Part shown: positions 2,997 to 22,370 of the stretch, in pieces
Position numbering within the stretch: position 1 is the stretch's first letter
How the letters are laid out: every line of letters starts with the position of its first letter
Origin: an uncultured virus (IMG/VR IMGVR_UViG_3300045995_000154)
Taxonomy: Duplodnaviria > Heunggongvirae > Uroviricota > Caudoviricetes
Strand: one strand, 5' to 3'
IMG/VR virus record: IMGVR_UViG_3300045995_000154
DNA: 64,000 nucleotides
Program-made: the position numbers and the translations under genes
The notes under the pieces: model-generated
The model's input: only the letters and a program-made list of their open reading frames with translations
What the model was told of the DNA's origin: nothing
Databases searched by the model: none

Positions 2997-3174
2997 TTGT
3001 TTTAAGGCTGACGTTTGTGCTTGCGTACAGGATTCGAACCTGCCCATCCGGGTTTAAAGCCCAGTATGCTATCCACTACATCAACGTAATCTCCTTACCA
3101 ACCATACTGCAATACTTATGGACAGGAGTCAAACTTCAGACTGCTTCAAATTGCAGTTATCAGCCTTAAAACAA
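2997..3174 (-). ncRNA. CUGCAA-motif RNA enclosing a tRNA-like domain with UUA anticodon
   Basis: 15-bp terminal helix UUGUUUUAAGGCUGA/UCAGCCUUAAAACAA; internal D, anticodon and T arms; no CCA. Confidence 0.65.
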
Positions 3175-5039: not shown

Positions 5040-5250
5040 ATTGTACATTAAAGTTAATTTAGTGTCAAACACTTTGTTTCTATCCCTTAGCAAGCTTAGG
5101 ATTTCTTCACTTAGTGCTTTATCTAACTTAAGTCTTATTGTACATTAAAACCTATTAAGCGTCAACTTAGTTTGGCAATCTTTTTACTTACCGCCAACCA
5201 CCTCATCAACTTAAGTACCTATTGTACATTAAAACGTTTATTACGTCAAA
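5040..5250 (-). promoter_or_regulatory. Three tandem sigma70 promoters
   Basis: TTGACA/TTGACG-N17-TACAAT three times, each with TTTAATG before the -10. Confidence 0.8.
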
Positions 5251-5566
5251 TCCTGAAGCTTTCGCCACATCCACAACGATCTCGCTCGTTTGGGTTGTTG
5301 AAGCGGAATCCCTCATTCAATCCTTCACGTACATAGTCCACTTCCATGCCTTGTAAATAGGCACAGCTCTTAGGGTCAACGAACAGTTTGCAGTCCTTGC
5401 ATTCAATGCAAAGGTCTTCTGCTTGCGCTTCGTCTACGTACTCTAGCACGTATGCTAGTCCACTGCAACCTGTTGTCTTAACGCCAAGACGGATACCGGC
5501 ACCTTTACCACGCTTTGCGATAACTTGCTGTATCTTTCTAGCTGCTTTATCAGTCAGTGACAACAT
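5246..5566 (-). CDS. iscA: Iron-sulfur cluster assembly protein IscA
   Basis: GCSGLAY and CGCGESF motifs. Confidence 0.95.
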   Translation of the reverse strand: MLSLTDKAARKIQQVIAKRGKGAGIRLGVKTTGCSGLAYVLEYVDEAQAEDLCIECKDCKLFVDPKSCAYLQGMEVDYVREGLNEGFRFNNPNERDRCGCGESFRI

Positions 5567-5943
5567 GCTTTGCCTTGTAATCTGCAACCGCTGCCTTGAT
5601 AGCATCTTCTGCAAGAATAGAGCAATGGATCTTTACTGGTGGCAGAGCGAGTTCTTCTGCGATTGTACTGTTTTTCAGGGACGCGGCTTCGTCCAGTGTT
5701 TTTCCTTTGACCCATTCTGTCACTAATGATGACGATGCAATGGCTGATCCGCAACCGTAAGTCTTAAATCGTGCATCAGTGATGATGCCGTCTACCACTT
5801 TGATTTGTAGCTTCATTACATCGTCAACAACCGCAAGCTGGGGCACCAACCATCCCGGTCCCAACTTGCGCATCTCCTTTACCGAACGACCCTACGTTCC
5901 TCGGGTTTTCATAATGGTCAATCACAGCATTTGAATAAGCCAT
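5550..5943 (-). pseudogene. iscU: Fe-S scaffold IscU, frameshifted by a 7-nt insertion
   Basis: MAYSNAVIDHYENPRNVG..GAPACG in one frame; DVMKLQI..GCGSAIASSS..LPPVKIHCS in another. Confidence 0.85.
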
Positions 5944-7381: not shown

Positions 7382-7468
7382 TGGCGGATCATAATAGAAT
7401 CGAACTATCACCGCTTTCGCAGTGGGTCGGTATTCGAAGCCGATTAACGCCCAGCGTACCTATGATCC
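7382..7468 (-). tRNA. tRNA-Ser(CGA)
   Basis: Long variable arm, G73, CCA. Confidence 0.88.
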
Positions 7469-8664
7469 ATAATCTTTATCTTTTTAAATCCTGCATTAGT
7501 TGGATTCCCTGCTGGCTTTGCATTTTCTGGACATAAGCTGCAAGCAGGAATTTCATATAGCAAGTCATCAATAAACTTTTTAATTTTGGCAATCTCCCAA
7601 TTTGGATTGCCGGGCTCGTAGCTACTAGCTACCGCCATTTGTTCTTTTGTTGCATCAACTGCAAACTGTGCACTAAATTCGCCAAATACTGCAACTGGGC
7701 CGCATTTCCAAAGTCTACCTCTGGCAAATTGATATGCTTGCCACTCAACTGAAGTAAAGCAGCAATTTGAATGTGCTACTCTTCCGTTGCCAGTTTGGAA
7801 TTTAACAGTTTGCCCCACTTGCGTAAGCATAGTGTCATAAAACTTATATGAATCCATTACTAGCAATGATACGCCATTAGCATCAGTGATTTTATATCCA
7901 TCCGAAATTGGTTTTGGTGGTGCAAAATTAAACAATGTAATACATTCGTCTTGAATGTATTGCGGTAAATTTTTAAACTCATCAGGTCTGTTACATGCTG
8001 GCCAATCGTTGGCTTTGATGGAGTTGTATTTTTCAATCCATGCTGTGTTGCTAACTGCTCCCCAGTTTTCATCGAATGAGAATAACTCCTTGCATTCATC
8101 TTGAATGGCTGATGGCAAACTCTTAAAGTCAGACCTAAAATTACATGTTGGCCAATCTGCTAGTTTAATTTGTTTGTATTTTATGTCCCACCGACTACCT
8201 ATTACTTCTGGTGTCAGGGATGCATGTACATCAGCAGCAAAATTTGCGCTGCTCTTTACATACGGTGCAATTAAAAATTGATCTATTCCAGTCTGCGCAT
8301 TTTGCATTACTTCATTGCTGTGTGCAGACATCCTAACTGACAATCTTGGGTTTTTAAGTCGCTCGTACAATTCTGGCCAACGCGAGAACTGTGTACCATT
8401 TGTTAATATTTCTACCTTTGATGTGGGCCATAGACCCATAACGCCGTCTACCCACAACAAAAAATCTGGATTAAGCATAGGCTCACCACCCAAAATTACT
8501 ATGTGTTTAATGTCGACAATGGCCGCCCACTTGGTATACTCGGCTGAATAATCAGCCCAGCGTTCGTGGCCCTTAAACGTAAAATTGTTAAACCTATTAC
8601 AGTCAGTGCAATTCAAATTACATACGTTTGTGATGTAAAAATCTGCAAACTCGATTTCAATCAT
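7444..8664 (-). CDS. Radical SAM protein with internal tandem repeat
   Basis: CNLNCTDC, LGGEP, TNG, C-terminal CSLCP. Confidence 0.9.
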   Translation of the reverse strand: MIEIEFADFYITNVCNLNCTDCNRFNNFTFKGHERWADYSAEYTKWAAIVDIKHIVILGGEPMLNPDFLLWVDGVMGLWPTSKVEILTNGTQFSRWPELYERLKNPRLSVRMSAHSNEVMQNAQTGIDQFLIAPYVKSSANFAADVHASLTPEVIGSRWDIKYKQIKLADWPTCNFRSDFKSLPSAIQDECKELFSFDENWGAVSNTAWIEKYNSIKANDWPACNRPDEFKNLPQYIQDECITLFNFAPPKPISDGYKITDANGVSLLVMDSYKFYDTMLTQVGQTVKFQTGNGRVAHSNCCFTSVEWQAYQFARGRLWKCGPVAVFGEFSAQFAVDATKEQMAVASSYEPGNPNWEIAKIKKFIDDLLYEIPACSLCPENAKPAGNPTNAGFKKIKIMDHRYAGR

Positions 8665-9309
8665 TTATTGATGTTTATATGTTTCTATATATTTTACCAC
8701 ATTGGTATCAAACCATTGTGGGTTTGCATGTAAGTAATCAATTGTTTTACTTAATGTCCACGGTGTTCTATAAGGGCGATTCGACATTAGTGCTTCCGCA
8801 ACGTCACATGCCGCCAATATACGTATATTATGCGGAATTTGTTCCGCTGTCAATTTAAGTGGATAACCCGACCCATCTAATCGCTCATGATGCATATATG
8901 CAAAATCTACTAATGGCCACGGTGATACTAAATTAGATAAAATAATTTTACCAATCGGCACATGCGTTTCCGCAATCATCCGCTCACCAGGAGTAAGTGG
9001 TCCAGCCTTAGAAATAACACTGTGGTGGACACCTATTTTGCCTATATCATGTATCAACGATCCAATTGTGACACCAATCATGTCATGGTATGATAACCCC
9101 ATCTTGGATGCAACATGCGTTGCAATTTCTTCTGCAGAACACAAGTGATCACCTGTATGCGAGTCGTATGCTTGCATCATTGTGACTAGAGTTTCAAAGT
9201 GAGAACATATTGTTTTCACTGTCATCTCATCAGGAGAATTACCCATGCTAGCCATGTAGTGCTGCAAAAACTCTTTACTTGCAAACATGGCTTTAGTATT
9301 AGGGTGCAT
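8665..9309 (-). CDS. HD-GYP cyclic-dinucleotide phosphodiesterase
   Basis: HDIGK, HHERLDGSGYP, CDVAEAL..RPYR; start set at ATG 9309 because the longer version overlaps tRNA-Val. Confidence 0.9.
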   Translation of the reverse strand: MHPNTKAMFASKEFLQHYMASMGNSPDEMTVKTICSHFETLVTMMQAYDSHTGDHLCSAEEIATHVASKMGLSYHDMIGVTIGSLIHDIGKIGVHHSVISKAGPLTPGERMIAETHVPIGKIILSNLVSPWPLVDFAYMHHERLDGSGYPLKLTAEQIPHNIRILAACDVAEALMSNRPYRTPWTLSKTIDYLHANPQWFDTNVVKYIETYKHQ

Positions 9310-9319
9310 ACTATATTTA

Positions 9320-9393
9320 TGGTATCCCGTAGCAGAATTGAACTGCTGTTTTAACCATGTCAAAGTTACGCTCTACCATTGAGCTAACGGGAC
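9320..9393 (-). tRNA. tRNA-Val(GAC)
   Basis: Cloverleaf, CCA. Confidence 0.88.
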
Positions 9394-9399
9394 AAATTT

Positions 9400-9476
9400 T
9401 GGCATACCGGGAAGGATTCGAACCTTCATCACGCAATTTTGGAGACTGCTGTTCTGCCAATTGGAACTACCGATAT
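9400..9476 (-). tRNA. tRNA-Trp(CCA)
   Basis: Cloverleaf, CCA end. Confidence 0.82.
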
Positions 9477-9482
9477 ATAATT

Positions 9483-9570
9483 TGGCGGGTGAGAGAGGAC
9501 TTGAACCTCCACGCCTTTTTCAAAACGTCAGTTTAGCAAACTGATGCGGCTACCATTTCGCCACTCACCC
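9483..9570 (-). tRNA. tRNA-Ser(GCU)
   Basis: Long variable arm, G73. Confidence 0.9.
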
Positions 9571-9674
9571 ATTAATCTTACTGTGAGGGCTAACCTCTCT
9601 AGCGCAAGTAGCACGTTCCGGTTTACGCCGGTTCGGTTGAGCAGGGTCCAGGTTGCTTGGGACTACTTATACTC

Positions 9675-9749
9675 TGGAGCCTTCAGCTAGAATCAAACTA
9701 GCGATTACTGATTACGAAACAGTCGTGTTATCACTAACACTATAAAGGC
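9675..9749 (-). tRNA. tRNA-Thr(CGU)
   Basis: Cloverleaf, CCA. Confidence 0.82.
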
Positions 9750-9918
9750 ATATTAAATTAGAAGGTTGGATTTACGGTTTCGACACCGCTGCACCAACTT
9801 GTAAGACCGTAAGGGGGTCTTTCGGTAATATTCGGCCCACGTCGTCCGTCCGATATTTACCTATACACTGATATACGACCTGTCTACCAGTTGCTGTTCT
9901 ACCAGCTGCTTCTAAACT

Positions 9919-9995
9919 TGGTGCACCCTCTCGGATTCGAACCGAGAACATTTAGTTTCTAAGACTAACCTGACTACCAATTGCAGCAAGGGTGC
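9919..9995 (-). tRNA. tRNA-Leu(UAG), short variable loop
   Basis: Cloverleaf, A73, 5-nt variable loop. Confidence 0.85.
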
Positions 9996-10095
9996 ATATT
10001 CTGTGCTAGTTTACTCCTTACTAGCAAGTCCTATAAGTCGACTCTGCATTTAAGCCTGCAGAGCTTACTATGCCTATAGCGTAGGCTTAAAATAA

Positions 10096-10395
10096 TCAAC
10101 ACTCCGTAGCCGGGATTCTGTTCTATGCTAACATTAATCTTTGCCACAACCCGCACCTATAAGCAAAAGGTTCCCAAGTGCTGTTTGTGTTGCACACTAT
10201 ATCACGGTAGTGTTAACGATAGCATTTTGTGGTGGAGTTTGCCAGGGGCTTTCACCTGGTTGCGGCCTGGAGCGCGAAGGCCCAGTTTCGTCCTATATGT
10301 TACGTGTTCAAACCCCATTACAAAATACTATCTCCTACTCGCCCTTTGCGTGTGTCCCGAACTTCCTGACTTGCGCCCGTTAGCTCGAATGTTGA
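10096..10395 (-). ncRNA. rnpB: Ribonuclease P RNA
   Basis: P1 UCAACAUUC/GAGUGUUGA, P2 GCUAAC/GUUAGC, CR-I AGGAAGUUCGGGA, CR-V AACAGAAUCCCGGCUAC forming P4. Confidence 0.85.
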
Positions 10396-10399
10396 AATT

Positions 10400-10520
10400 T
10401 GGTGCAGCCCCGTGGATTCGAACCACGACCTCGTCCTTGTATAATGGAATGATTGTAGTGCTGTATTGTATCCTTGTCAGGATCGCTTTCTACGCGAGCT
10501 AACCATTACTCTAAGGCTGC
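10400..10520 (-). ncRNA. tRNA-shaped RNA with anticodon arm replaced by an AUCCU/AGGAU..ACAGCA module
   Basis: Canonical acceptor, D and T arms, CCA; ~60-nt central insert. Confidence 0.7.
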
Positions 10521-10527
10521 ATTAAAT

Positions 10528-10602
10528 TGGCCGGTCCTAGAGGAATCGAACCTCTACCCACTGTTTCGAAGACAATGATGATATCCATTTCACTAAGGAC
10601 CG
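10528..10602 (-). tRNA. tRNA-Arg(UCG)
   Basis: Cloverleaf, CCA. Confidence 0.88.
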
Positions 10603-10607
10603 ATATT

Positions 10608-10683
10608 TGGTGGGTCGCACGGGAGTCGAACCCGCCTGGTACTGATTAAGAGTCAGCTGCATCTGCCGCTTTGCTAACAACCC
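10608..10683 (-). tRNA. tRNA-Lys(CUU)
   Basis: Cloverleaf, CCA. Confidence 0.88.
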
Positions 10684-10691
10684 AAATTGTG

Positions 10692-10768
10692 TGGTGCCCC
10701 TGGTCAGATTCGAACTGACATCCAAAACCTTTTAAGGATTCCCGCACTACCAATTAGCGTACAGGGGC
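10692..10768 (-). tRNA. tRNA-Leu(UAA), short variable loop
   Basis: Cloverleaf, A73. Confidence 0.85.
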
Positions 10769-10877
10769 GAAAATAATTTAGCTAGAACAATCGCCAGGAT
10801 ATGTTGACACATACCCCAGCAGGGATTCGAACCCCATACACGCCTGATGTTCTATATTTTACGTGAGCCAAAAATAA

Positions 10878-10982
10878 CAGGATGTGGCGTCTATAGACCG
10901 GGACTCGAACCCTTGACGCACCCCCAGCGGGCCGGCCTCGCGAAGTATGGAGCGAGTTTTGAGTTTTGCTGCAATCATCCTA
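10878..10982 (-). ncRNA. CAGCAA-motif RNA with T-arm
   Basis: AGGAUG/CAUCCU helix, UUGCAGCAA, GGG-UUCGAGU-CCC. Confidence 0.6.
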
Positions 10983-10985
10983 AAC

Positions 10986-11061
10986 TGGTACATCGGACTG
11001 GCTTCGAACCAGTGACACCTAACTTTTCAGGCTAGTGCTCTACCAACTGAGCTACCGATGC
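10986..11061 (-). tRNA. tRNA-Phe(GAA)
   Basis: Cloverleaf, CCA. Confidence 0.88.
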
Positions 11062-11070
11062 ATAATATAA

Positions 11071-11133
11071 CAGGATCAACTTTTTAGTTTTCGAACAAAG
11101 AAAATTTTATTAAGTTTTGCTGAACTGATCCTA
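11071..11133 (-). ncRNA. CAGCAA-motif RNA
   Basis: AGGAUCA/UGAUCCU helix, GUUCAGCAA. Confidence 0.6.
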
Positions 11134-11137
11134 AAAC

Positions 11138-11215
11138 TGGTACCCTAGGTCGGATTCGAACCGACACGATTCTCCTTTTGAGAGAGACGCCTCATACCAA
11201 TTGGGCTACTAGGGC
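11138..11215 (-). tRNA. tRNA-Leu(CAA), short variable loop
   Basis: Cloverleaf, A73. Confidence 0.85.
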
Positions 11216-11224
11216 ATAATAACT

Positions 11225-11300
11225 TGGTGCAACCTACAGGGATCGAACCTGTTTCATCGGCTTTTCAGACCGCTGCAATGACCACATTTGCTAAAGTTGC
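11225..11300 (-). tRNA. tRNA-Phe(GAA)
   Basis: Cloverleaf, CCA. Confidence 0.82.
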
Positions 11301-11312
11301 ATAATAAACTTA

Positions 11313-11385
11313 GGGGTGACCGATGGGAGTTGAACCCATACTACCAGAGTCACAGTCTAGGTTGCTACCGCTACAACACGGCCAC
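11313..11385 (-). tRNA. tRNA-His(GUG)
   Basis: Cloverleaf, C73; G-1 and terminal A not encoded. Confidence 0.85.
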
Positions 11386-11404
11386 ACCTAAGTTCACTAA
11401 AATT

Positions 11405-11478
11405 TGGCAGCCCGTGTAGGAATCGAACCTACGCTTACTGAGTCAGAGTCAGTTATTCTTCCATTAAACTAACAGGCA
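11405..11478 (-). tRNA. tRNA-Gln(CUG)
   Basis: Cloverleaf, G73, CCA. Confidence 0.85.
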
Positions 11479-11484
11479 ACAAAT

Positions 11485-11571
11485 TGGCTGAGGAAGTACG
11501 ACTTGAACGTACACGCCCTTTACAGACACTGATTTCAAAGACCAGCGTGGCTACCATTTCACCATTCCCCA
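11485..11571 (-). tRNA. tRNA with Gln anticodon (UUG) and long variable arm
   Basis: 87 nt, CUGGU-CUUUGAA-AUCAG, variable arm GUCU-GUAA-AGGGC, G73. Confidence 0.8.
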
Positions 11572-11612
11572 ATAAACTATAAATAATATACATACATCAT
11601 TAAGGTACGTAT

Positions 11613-11912
11613 ATGAAAAACTTTCTAGCTGCACTTTTACTCGTTCCCACTTTATCATTCGCTACGCTTGAGCATTTCAAGAAGGACGTAATCTGCGAAG
11701 ACGAGGACAAATTAATGGCCGAATTAACTGGTCCTGAGTATCAGGAAGAAGTTGTCATTATCGGCAAAGGATCAGTAAACGTGTTAATCATTACGCTCAA
11801 CAAAGAAACAGGATCTTACTCTGTATTAGAAGTTAACGATGGTAAATTGTGCGGGCTAAACGTAGGCGATAATTTTACCATTAATTGGAAGAAAATGCCT
11901 ACACAAAAATAA
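11613..11912 (+). CDS. Small exported protein (signal peptide)
   Basis: MKNFLAALLLVPTLSFA; TATAAATA at 11578 and AAGG RBS. Confidence 0.75.
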   Translation: MKNFLAALLLVPTLSFATLEHFKKDVICEDEDKLMAELTGPEYQEEVVIIGKGSVNVLIITLNKETGSYSVLEVNDGKLCGLNVGDNFTINWKKMPTQK

Positions 11913-20959: not shown

Positions 20960-22153
20960 TTACGCCACCCATTCTAAAAATGTTGACGGAAAAATATCTA
21001 AGCTCAAATCAGGTCTGCGATTAACAAACTCAGTTAGGAACTCTTTTAAATTTTGTCGCTGTAGCTGCGATGGTTCTGCTTTAATGGATTCCATAATTGG
21101 CCCTTTGATGCTATCAGGAAATAGCTGTATGTCTTCCATTATACGCTGTTTACTGGTATTGTCCAAGACATATGGCGCCATCATTGTTGGTTGATATGCA
21201 AAGGTAACTTCTATTTTCTTATGCCCAAACATCCTATAAAAGTCAGCAAATCCAAAAATTGTTAGGTTCGAGATGACTGCGTGAAACATGTAATCGACAC
21301 CATGCTGATCAAGTATTTCCAACTTAGCCACAAAATCTGTCCACTCATTCCCATAACGATTGAACTCAAAAAATTTACCAGTTGCTTCTGCACTTACATT
21401 GATGTACAATTGGTTGACTGACTGTAACTTTTCAGCTATCTTTTTAAATCGTGACATACTTACCCCAAACCCAGAGTACAGTTCAATCACCGCGTCATCA
21501 GCCAATACTAAATTTGCAAGCGTGTCAATTAACGCATTGTCAAGAAACGGCTCACCACCAGTGATGACAATTTTCTTAGCAGTGGGTGCTACTAGGGCGA
21601 CTTCAGCTAGTAACTTCTGGTACTGTGCTTGTTCCTTGCGGTTGGGCTGGCTAGTTTTTATCAATATTTTATCTTTGGCCGTAGCGACAAACCTATCGTC
21701 GCTTGTACCAGTAATACTATAATTACCATTATTGACTATATCTCGGCGCCAAGCTGAACTAAATTCTTTACAGCAATAAGTACATGTTAGATTACAATCG
21801 CTGCCAATAGTGATATCTATTATTTCCGGCAGTAAAGTCAATTCCTCATGAGTACGTTTTTGTCCACCTTGGTATTGCCTGGGGCTTTGTGCGCCAACAT
21901 CTTCAGCAGCCCAACAATTTTGCTCACAGCTCGCATTGCGAACATTTTGTAGCATCATTGCACGTTCCGCGACATTGAGTGCGGTATTGTGCAACTCACC
22001 AGGATTTTCTTCTAGCCATGAAAAATCCACCTTATGTGGCACTGCTGCGTGGCACGTATAGGTGGTTTTAGACTCCAGATCTATCTTCTGAAATCTAAAT
22101 TTCATCGAGCAATAATAATCCCGACCGTCTAAGATCGGGATTATTTCACTCAT
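20960..22153 (-). CDS. Radical SAM protein with N-terminal SPASM/twitch-like domain
   Basis: CNLTCTYC, TGGEP, extra Cys cluster. Confidence 0.88.
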   Translation of the reverse strand: MSEIIPILDGRDYYCSMKFRFQKIDLESKTTYTCHAAVPHKVDFSWLEENPGELHNTALNVAERAMMLQNVRNASCEQNCWAAEDVGAQSPRQYQGGQKRTHEELTLLPEIIDITIGSDCNLTCTYCCKEFSSAWRRDIVNNGNYSITGTSDDRFVATAKDKILIKTSQPNRKEQAQYQKLLAEVALVAPTAKKIVITGGEPFLDNALIDTLANLVLADDAVIELYSGFGVSMSRFKKIAEKLQSVNQLYINVSAEATGKFFEFNRYGNEWTDFVAKLEILDQHGVDYMFHAVISNLTIFGFADFYRMFGHKKIEVTFAYQPTMMAPYVLDNTSKQRIMEDIQLFPDSIKGPIMESIKAEPSQLQRQNLKEFLTEFVNRRPDLSLDIFPSTFLEWVA

Positions 22154-22370
22154 CTTCGTTGTAATAGTCATCTTCGTCTTCGGCTGCATACTCGCGCATC
22201 GCCTTAGACAAGGTGGTGTCGCTACCGCCGAAGTCTTGCAACTCCTCATCAGACAACATATCAACCATTACGCTCATTACATTGTCTGCTGCCTCTTGGC
22301 GGTCCTTAGCAGGGATGTACTGCTTAAGGATGGAGTATACTTCGTTCAATACTTCTACTTCGATGCTCAT
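22146..22370 (-). CDS. Acidic hypothetical protein
   Basis: Coupled ORF after uvsX. Confidence 0.7.
   Translation of the reverse strand: MSIEVEVLNEVYSILKQYIPAKDRQEAADNVMSVMVDMLSDEELQDFGGSDTTLSKAMREYAAEDEDDYYNEDE

Follow-up and report, generated by a model that had tools for sequence, protein, structure and literature searches.

A phage-encoded RNase P RNA homologue without an S-domain among the tRNA genes of an uncultured virus

Introduction

In type A RNase P, the CCA end of the tRNA pairs with G292 and G293 of the RNA, residue -1 pairs with A248, and metal ions are bound around the bulge of helix P4. The S-domain contributes strongly to the binding of pre-tRNA in bacterial enzymes. The type T RNA of Pyrobaculum, which works with archaeal proteins, has a length of only about 200 nucleotides (nt), with nearly the whole S-domain gone. 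RNase P RNA is, to our knowledge, regarded as a strictly cellular and organellar gene. Here we analyse an RNA gene on the minus strand of 10096-10395 in a stretch of 64,000 nt (referred to throughout as the window) from an uncultured virus (IMG/VR record IMGVR_UViG_3300045995_000154; Caudoviricetes), for which an earlier annotation made from the letters of the DNA (the sequence-only reading) had proposed a phage-encoded RNase P RNA inside a tRNA array. We find that the gene is a viral, S-domain-less form of a known ribozyme.

Residue roles in type A RNase P are touched on in PMC10465520 and PMC12710915, and natural S-domain-poor type T RNAs are described in the Thermoproteaceae (PMC3579882, PMC13462272). 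The catalytic domain (C-domain) of the Escherichia coli RNA still cleaves when the S-domain is removed, at lower efficiency (PMC5839562). Among phages, theta ribozymes, which are hepatitis delta virus (HDV)-like, adjoin tRNA genes and have been tied to tRNA maturation (PMC10879173). A literature search, thin on subscription journals, found no description of a virus- or phage-encoded RNase P RNA. One candidate account of such an RNA, PMC6582537, was set aside, as it covers only mycobacterial rnpB.

Results

The window RNA has a complete type A catalytic domain

A permissive Rfam scan of 9990-10530 matches RNaseP_bact_a (RF00010) at 10091-10396 on the minus strand, over model positions 1-367 of 367, with 28.2 bits and an E-value of 4.1e-7 that refers to a search of these 541 bases. 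The alignment takes in P1, P2, P3, conserved region I (CR-I), J5/15, P15/16, CR-IV and CR-V, and leaves the S-domain and P18 unaligned. The covariance search thus returns a full-length match, but one under the curated cut-off; at the Rfam gathering thresholds no RNase P RNA is reported in the 64-kb window, only 38 tRNAs. We further scored the window with a family model, R1, built from 20 relatives with the window excluded. R1 matches 10095-10397 at 170.1 bits (E 1.8e-44), and its sole other match anywhere in the 64 kb has 7.8 bits. The folding of the window RNA also beats that of 100 out of 100 shuffled sequences (z -2.96).

The elements P1, P2, P3, CR-I, CR-IV and CR-V follow one another in RNase P order on the minus strand (Table 1). 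The landmarks from which the sequence-only reading had started, namely P1, P2 (GCUAAC/GUUAGC) and a minimal P3 with a GCAA loop, can all be read there. The proposed pairing of CR-I with CR-V as P4 is likewise borne out, with eight pairs in the order A-U, G-C, bulged U10361, U-G, C-G, three G-C and A-U. The remark that GGAAGUUC departs from the usual bacterial form also holds, since compared with the E. coli GGAAAGUCC it has one A fewer and a U in place of C70.

For residue comparison, E. coli rnpB (M1) was aligned to RF00010 (318.6 bits) and numbered. Like M1, the window RNA has a P1-P2-P3 stack, a P4 with a bulged U, P5 and the P6 pseudoknot. Similarly, both RNAs have P15/P16 with a GGU loop, where GGGU at 10152-10149 corresponds to G292 G293 U294 in the CGGGUA of E. 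coli, and the GCAA of J5/15 in the window lies at the place of A248 and A249. This GGGU is invariant in the family alignments described below, and Rfam aligns CGGGU to the consensus CGGGU. The shared conserved regions further include CR-IV (AGAU.AAUG) and CR-V (ACAGAA..CCCGGCU).

Unlike M1, the window RNA has an additional A-U pair at the inner end of P4, is 300 nt long rather than 377, scores 28.2 bits against 318.6, and is encoded by a virus. Unlike bacterial class A RNAs in general, it has neither the S-domain (P8-P14, CR-II/III) nor P18, and its P3 is reduced to 3 bp. Indeed, Rfam aligns nothing in the window RNA to the S-domain (CR-II, CR-III); 24 model positions are deleted at P18, and there is no P18 between P15 and the CR-IV stretch, a place where hairpins are found in a few relatives (L149, L214, L001 and L006). 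The catalytic domain of the window RNA is complete and its S-domain has been lost. The RNA had been described as shorter than typical type A RNAs; this is correct for its 300 nt, but the reduction is not a uniform compaction, as the S-domain and P18 are gone and a variable module of 115 nt has been added.

Table 1. Features of the RNase P RNA-like gene and of its surroundings, in window coordinates
Feature	Position	Strand	Basis or remark
RNase P RNA-like gene, P1 5' strand to P1 3' strand, 300 nt	10096..10395	-	Rfam RF00010 and family model R1
P1 5' strand UCAACAUUC	10387..10395	-	pairs with 10096-10104
P2 5' strand GCUAAC	10379..10384	-	pairs with GUUAGC 10127-10132
Minimal P3 hairpin GGC/GUC, 3 bp, GCAA loop	10368..10377	-	
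CR-I AGGAAGUUCGGGA, including P4 5' strand and bulged U10361	10355..10367	-	Rfam aligns it to consensus GAGGAAAGUCCGGg
P5 5' strand CACAC	10350..10354	-	pairs with GUGUG 10193-10197
P6 pseudoknot 5' strand GCAAAGGG	10342..10349	-	pairs with CCUUUUGC 10163-10170, in the loop closed by P16
P7-like helix 5' strand GUAG	10335..10338	-	pairs with CUAC 10207-10210
Variable module, 115 nt	10218..10332	-	12-bp closing stem 10321-10332/10218-10229
Four-helix junction in the module	10230-10320	-	start GGGGUUUG, end CAAACUCC-ACCA
P15 and P16 region	10145..10189	-	P15 10186-10189/10145-10148; P16 10176-10181/10153-10158
Internal-loop GGGU	10149-10152	-	equivalent of the GGU in type A L15 that binds CCA
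CR-IV-like AGAUUAAUG (J15/2)	10132..10140	-	Rfam-aligned to AGAugAAUG; E. coli has AGAUGAAUG
CR-V AACAGAAUCCCGGCUAC	10106..10122	-	P4 3' strand 10108-10115; E. coli counterpart ACAGAACCCGGCUUA
P1 3' strand GAGUGUUGA	10096..10104	-	pairs with 10387-10395
Upstream neighbour, tRNA-Gly(tcc)-like, 38-nt insert in the anticodon loop	10400..10520	-	ARAGORN intron option, default threshold
Downstream neighbour, tRNA-Leu(tag)	9919..9995	-	Rfam and ARAGORN; 100 nt after the RNA
Fe-S assembly and radical SAM genes	5246-5873, 7444-8664, 20960-22264	-	Pfam

Compensatory changes hold the fold across a family of viral RNAs

An exact search of IMG/VR for the CR-V 17-mer returned 33 loci, 19 of which have CR-I 136-377 nt upstream; the other 14 are matches in coding DNA or 3' remnants. 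One locus (L007) is identical to the window RNA. A second scan, with a CR-I pattern, gave 105 loci. From the two scans combined, motifs pick out 33 unique RNAs and the model 42 distinct sequences. The family thus comprises 42 distinct RNAs with lengths of 195-438 nt from P1 to P1, on at least 40 named IMG/VR contigs, some of them longer than 350 kb, and its members score 52-208 bits with R1. At the loci whose surroundings were scanned with Rfam, the members are flanked by tRNA genes.

Rfam itself recognizes a part of the family. Eight of the 19 member loci give full-length matches to RNaseP_arch or RNaseP_bact_a, with 26.2-51.8 bits and E-values of 3e-4 to 4.5e-12 (L002 51.8, L023 46.9, L001 37.2, L025 and L030 35.4, L016 31.7, L031 27.8 and L028 26.2 bits). 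The best of these has 51.8 bits against a cut-off of 84 for the archaeal model.

Two virus genomes, G002 (364.6 kb, complete) and G003 (375.9 kb, 93% complete), carry one copy of the RNA each. The nearest virus record to the window, G001 (134 kb, 38% complete), yielded no match either by DNA or with R1. A blastn search (setting 'distant') of 50,697 deposited phage records with the window RNA, L187 and L191 gave no match, and R1 has no match in either PA5oct or Sinorhizobium phage Phosso. Since these searches were negative, no cultured phage has been found with the RNA subfamily.

The fold was assessed on two alignments. A2, made with MAFFT, aligns 20 short forms and leaves the window out; P1-P7, P15 and P16 were drawn on it from one aligned sequence. 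In A2, 88.8% of the cells are paired, compared with 72.2% in shuffles (none of 500 reaches the real value) and 31.8-40.5% in slid controls, and 42 of the 57 pairs show changes on both sides. A3 is guided by, and fitted to, the covariance model (43 matches, 42 distinct); here 92.8% of the cells are paired compared with 72.4% when shuffled and 30.7-39.9% in slid controls, and both-side changes occur in 42 of 53 pairs.

In A3, both sides have changed in all ten pairs of P1 (90.1% of cells paired) and all six of P2 (97-100%), and covariation extends to all three pairs of P3, whose stems in relatives have 3-6 bp and GNRA or UNCG loops. Similarly, three of four modelled pairs covary in P5 (96.6% of cells paired), as do three of four in P7 (98.1%), three of four in P15 and all six in P16. 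In the P6 pseudoknot, where J5/7 pairs with the loop beyond P16, eight of eight pairs show both-side changes, though the covariance model omits this helix; 74.8% of the P6 cells are paired in the MAFFT alignment and 80.2% in the model-guided one. We regard the window RNA as very likely a true RNase P RNA homologue that has been kept by selection.

The short forms of the family, with 195-235 nt and no S-domain, resemble type T RNAs, and several of them score best against the archaeal Rfam model. Unlike archaeal type T, as far as a comparison by description goes, the phage RNAs have the hallmarks of type A, namely the P6 pseudoknot and the GGU of L15. The short forms have the same architecture as the engineered E. 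coli C-domain ribozyme, but the latter is a laboratory construct, whereas the phage RNAs are natural, diverged and selected. A theta ribozyme is likewise a phage ribozyme beside tRNA genes; unlike the window RNA, it is small and self-cleaving with an unrelated fold, and is not a trans-acting RNase P.

In L009/L162, on one IMG/VR contig, and in L021, GIY-YIG-like homing-endonuclease open reading frames (ORFs), named by eye from motifs, lie within the RNase P RNA gene or directly beside it. A distance of about 800 nt separates CR-I from CR-V in L009/L162, and in L021 an ORF of 185 aa is followed by only the 3' end of the RNA. L032 is a remnant of about 80 nt between tRNA genes, in which a P1-like 5' strand and an GGAAAUUCG-like stretch are followed directly by CR-V and the P1 3' strand, and may have arisen from the RNase P RNA gene by deletion.

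Phage tRNA genes carry the features that a catalytic domain would read

The window is DNA of a large freshwater phage. Pfam matches among its 49 ORFs include a T4-type large terminase (TerL), a tail sheath protein, a gp15-like sheath stabiliser and a UvsX-like RecA, along with homing-type endonucleases (two GIY-YIG, HNH, DUF559 and TnsA-like), IscA/IscU-like proteins, radical SAM enzymes and an HD protein. The TerL shares 51.5% identity with that of the Pseudomonas jumbo phage PA5oct group, and DNA with the window stretch was found in riverine, pond, wetland and lake metagenome runs. The sequence-only reading was therefore right to place a phage-encoded RNase P RNA homologue among tRNA genes, as phage genes in the window, the type A catalytic-domain architecture and the compensatory changes together attest.

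The 64 kb contain 38 tRNA genes by Rfam (gathering thresholds) and 45 by ARAGORN. The tRNA-Gly(tcc)-like gene next to the RNA is missed by standard ARAGORN and by Rfam, and its CCA ends 4 nt before P1; many of the phage tRNA genes are spaced by 8-14 nt. There is no terminator-like site between the RNA and the adjoining tRNA genes of the same strand, and the RNA would most likely be co-transcribed with the tRNA array. A scan of 9300-11700 for promoters and terminators gave counts not above those in shuffles. A promoter-like CTGACA-17-TACAAT lies at 10480-10452, in the insert of the tRNA-Gly gene; transcripts from it would begin some 50 nt upstream of the RNA.

The potential substrates fit a type A catalytic domain. 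Among the 38 Rfam tRNA genes, CCA is encoded in 36 and U is found at -1 in 31, and most have G at +1. CCA, U(-1) and G(+1) are directly read by the type A catalytic domain, so an enzyme without the S-domain would depend on them.

Other features of the array are recorded here for completeness. At 3017-3091 on the minus strand, ARAGORN calls a suppressor tRNA whose UUA anticodon would read UAA (45.7 bits with Rfam); its gene is one of only two tRNA genes without an encoded CCA. Blocks of the tRNA array are interspersed with IscA-like and IscU/NifU-like genes of Fe-S (iron-sulphur) assembly and with the gene for one of the two radical SAM proteins, the other radical SAM protein being encoded outside the array.

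The sequence-only reading had gone on to infer autonomous tRNA maturation by the virus, and on this point it is not supported. RnpA (PF00825) is absent from the 49 window ORFs and from G001, G002 and G003, of which the second and third are the complete and near-complete genomes above; the same search was positive in 10 control genomes. As no RnpA gene was found, the RNA would need a host protein or would have to work alone.

The phage RNA probably acts on the phage's own pre-tRNAs

We consider it fairly likely that the window RNA is a reduced phage RNase P RNA of the bacterial type A lineage that is catalytically active on phage pre-tRNAs. As the catalytic subunit, it would trim the 5' leaders off the phage's own pre-tRNAs, with the host RnpA protein as its probable partner. 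Substrates would be bound through contacts of the catalytic domain, namely CCA with GGU, U(-1) with the adenosines of J5/15, and G(+1), and the tRNA elbow would not be read. The phage might gain extra processing capacity, or freedom from the host RNase P RNA during infection.

Several points weigh against this proposal. The match of the window RNA to RF00010, with 28.2 bits, is below the gathering cut-off of 100 bits, and 11 of the 19 member loci, L007 included, have no RNase P match at an E-value of 0.01. The S-domain is absent, and CR-I has two adenosines in place of A65-A67 as well as a U-G pair where C70 is replaced by U. P4 is the sole helix without backing from compensatory changes in relatives: its eight pairs have 99-100% of cells paired, it is wholly invariant in A2, and CR-I is nearly invariant across the family, an invariance to which the collection of relatives by exact CR-I or CR-V patterns itself contributes. 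The ways in which A2 and A3 were made both favour the structure that was tested.

The protein side and expression add to these points. As no RnpA gene was found, the partner protein is assumed, and both activity and expression of the phage RNA are predicted. The 3' halves of relatives (10096-10222) occur in all of four metatranscriptome runs from four studies and are mostly 95-99% alike, but these RNA-library data are contigs, which attest the presence of relatives and not transcription, ends or strand.

The loss of the S-domain and the altered CR-I would also suit a decoy or modulator, in which the core captures host RnpA and cleaves poorly, so that host tRNA maturation is lowered or steered to phage substrates; with no phage RnpA found, such an RNA must compete for the host protein. 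The residues that serve only catalysis and docking (the bulged U, ACAGAA, the GGU of L15 and GCAA in J5/15) are nevertheless kept across 42 variants, and the 38 tRNA genes of the phage need RNase P and carry the CCA and U(-1) that it prefers. These observations make a decoy unlikely.

A variable module takes the place of the S-domain

Both Rfam and R1 handle the module of the window RNA as an insertion. In every member of the family, the stretch between the P7 strands forms a single hairpin. In short forms it has 15-30 nt and often a tetraloop; other members carry modules of 45-166 nt that are unrelated to one another, with a long perfect stem closing each of them. L006 and L008 match the window at 94-100% identity over three core stretches beside the module (68, 78 and 54 nt), yet their module is unrelated, which looks like a cassette exchange between close relatives. 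They also have a second insert, of about 160 nt, after P15. The differences between the modules of members, including those of L006 and L008, together with the GIY-YIG-like ORFs, point to the S-domain hairpin as a site of exchange. Seven loci (L003, L010, L014, L020, L025, L178 and L189) have a 51-nt AU-rich module with two direct copies of a unit of about 17 nt (AAAUUUACUUUGGUAUU-like).

The window module was compared with the S-domain that it replaces. Its GGUGAAAG and GGCAAACUCCACC match E. coli J12/13 and the 3' strands of P11/P10/P7, with GGCAAACUCCACC identical to M1 at 12 of 13 positions. This likeness is marginal, being equalled by 27 of 1000 shuffles for a single block and by 11 of 1000 for chained blocks; the two motifs are found in no other family member, and the likeness may reflect the CUCCACC ending alone. 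The module was accordingly rejected as an S-domain remnant. The motifs GGUGAAAG and AAACUCCACC are confined to the window's own IMG/VR contig, and a single sequence of this module type is known. A metagenome scan for the 3' end of the module plus P7 gave 30 loci, all chance matches to coding DNA, with no R1 match among them.

We also considered that the core is a carrier of the module, in which a tRNA-shaped element is released by RNase P, leaving a two-piece ribozyme, or acts in cis as a substrate mimic or regulator. The four-way junction of the window module has an outer helix, GGGGUUUG/CAAACUCC, of acceptor type (G-G-G.U-G), with G.U as third pair, U before it (position -1) and ACCA after it, which resembles alanine identity. 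The modules of L004, L013 and L031 have in common the closing stem, the GGGG start and the UCCACCA end, and carry in addition a canonical T arm. At thresholds of 90%, ARAGORN calls the modules of L004, L013, L031 and L171 tRNA- or tmRNA-like and none of four other modules, and Rfam gives weak tmRNA matches on L013 and L031.

Set against this, ARAGORN at its default calls no module, and calls that of the window only at thresholds of 80%. Rfam finds no family in the window module (10215-10335) at E-values up to 10, and in the L004 module only a 15-nt match to the T arm (8.5 bits, E 0.09). The module as a tRNA or tmRNA in its own right was rejected, having no backing from Rfam or default ARAGORN. 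The relatives have no SmpB gene, the window module type is the single sequence noted above, and the many relatives with only a hairpin of 15-30 nt show that the module is dispensable. A carrier role is thus quite improbable.

The family is diverged from cellular RNase P RNAs

In 185,579 cellular species genomes the CR-V 17-mer occurs at 102 loci, many of them within coding DNA, and at none of the 102 is there an upstream CR-I or an RNase P context. R1 scores 100 of these 102 loci at 7.7-28.8 bits, over 34-144 nt. Because the phage-type 17-mer stands outside any RNase P context in these genomes, the phage RNA is not a recent capture.

This bears on the possibility that the gene is a functionless pseudogene, namely a host rnpB that the phage acquired and that is now decaying. 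A score under the Rfam cut-off, the loss of the S-domain and P18, and inserts that include homing-endonuclease ORFs in relatives are what such decay might leave. Compensatory changes hold the helices across 42 diverged variants, though, the complete and near-complete genomes have one copy each, and none of the 100 cellular loci scored with R1 exceeds 28.8 bits against 52-208 for members, which makes a pseudogene very improbable. A chance resemblance of an unrelated structured RNA or spacer of tRNA arrays, which a score under the curated threshold and motifs first chosen by eye might suggest, is scarcely credible given a full-length and colinear Rfam match (E 4e-7, and down to 4.5e-12 in relatives) with both pseudoknots (P4 and P6) and CR-I, CR-IV and CR-V correctly ordered.

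Discussion

The proposed activity of the RNA on phage pre-tRNAs can be joined with the variable module into a broader picture, which we offer tentatively and consider unlikely to hold in full. Jumbo phages would keep an S-domain-less RNase P tuned to pre-tRNAs that encode CCA and have U(-1), and the hairpin left at the place of the S-domain would serve as a platform into which modules are swapped. In the window RNA and a few relatives, a tRNA(Ala)- or tmRNA-shaped element in this hairpin would be the enzyme's own substrate, which might yield a two-piece enzyme and a small tRNA-like RNA, or might allow self-regulation.

A circular form of the RNA may also be possible. A 271-nt contig of run X21 (depth 36.7) is a short-form relative with 43 other bases replacing 10222-10328, and its first 27 bases repeat its end, which connects the P1 3' end to a point 5 nt upstream of the P1 5' strand. 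Such a junction could come from a circular RNA or from tandem copies, or else be an artefact of the library.

The Rfam gathering cut-off excludes the RNase P RNA genes of this family, and standard annotation therefore misses them. That dozens of large phages keep a copy of their own under selection would mean that phages encode, besides tRNAs, the ribozyme that matures them. Among the members of the family, the window RNA is distinguished by its unusual 115-nt module. The family as a whole forms a natural series of minimal S-domain-free type A RNAs, of 195-235 nt, which could help to find the smallest RNA capable of RNase P catalysis and to see how contacts of the catalytic domain can restore the recognition of substrates.

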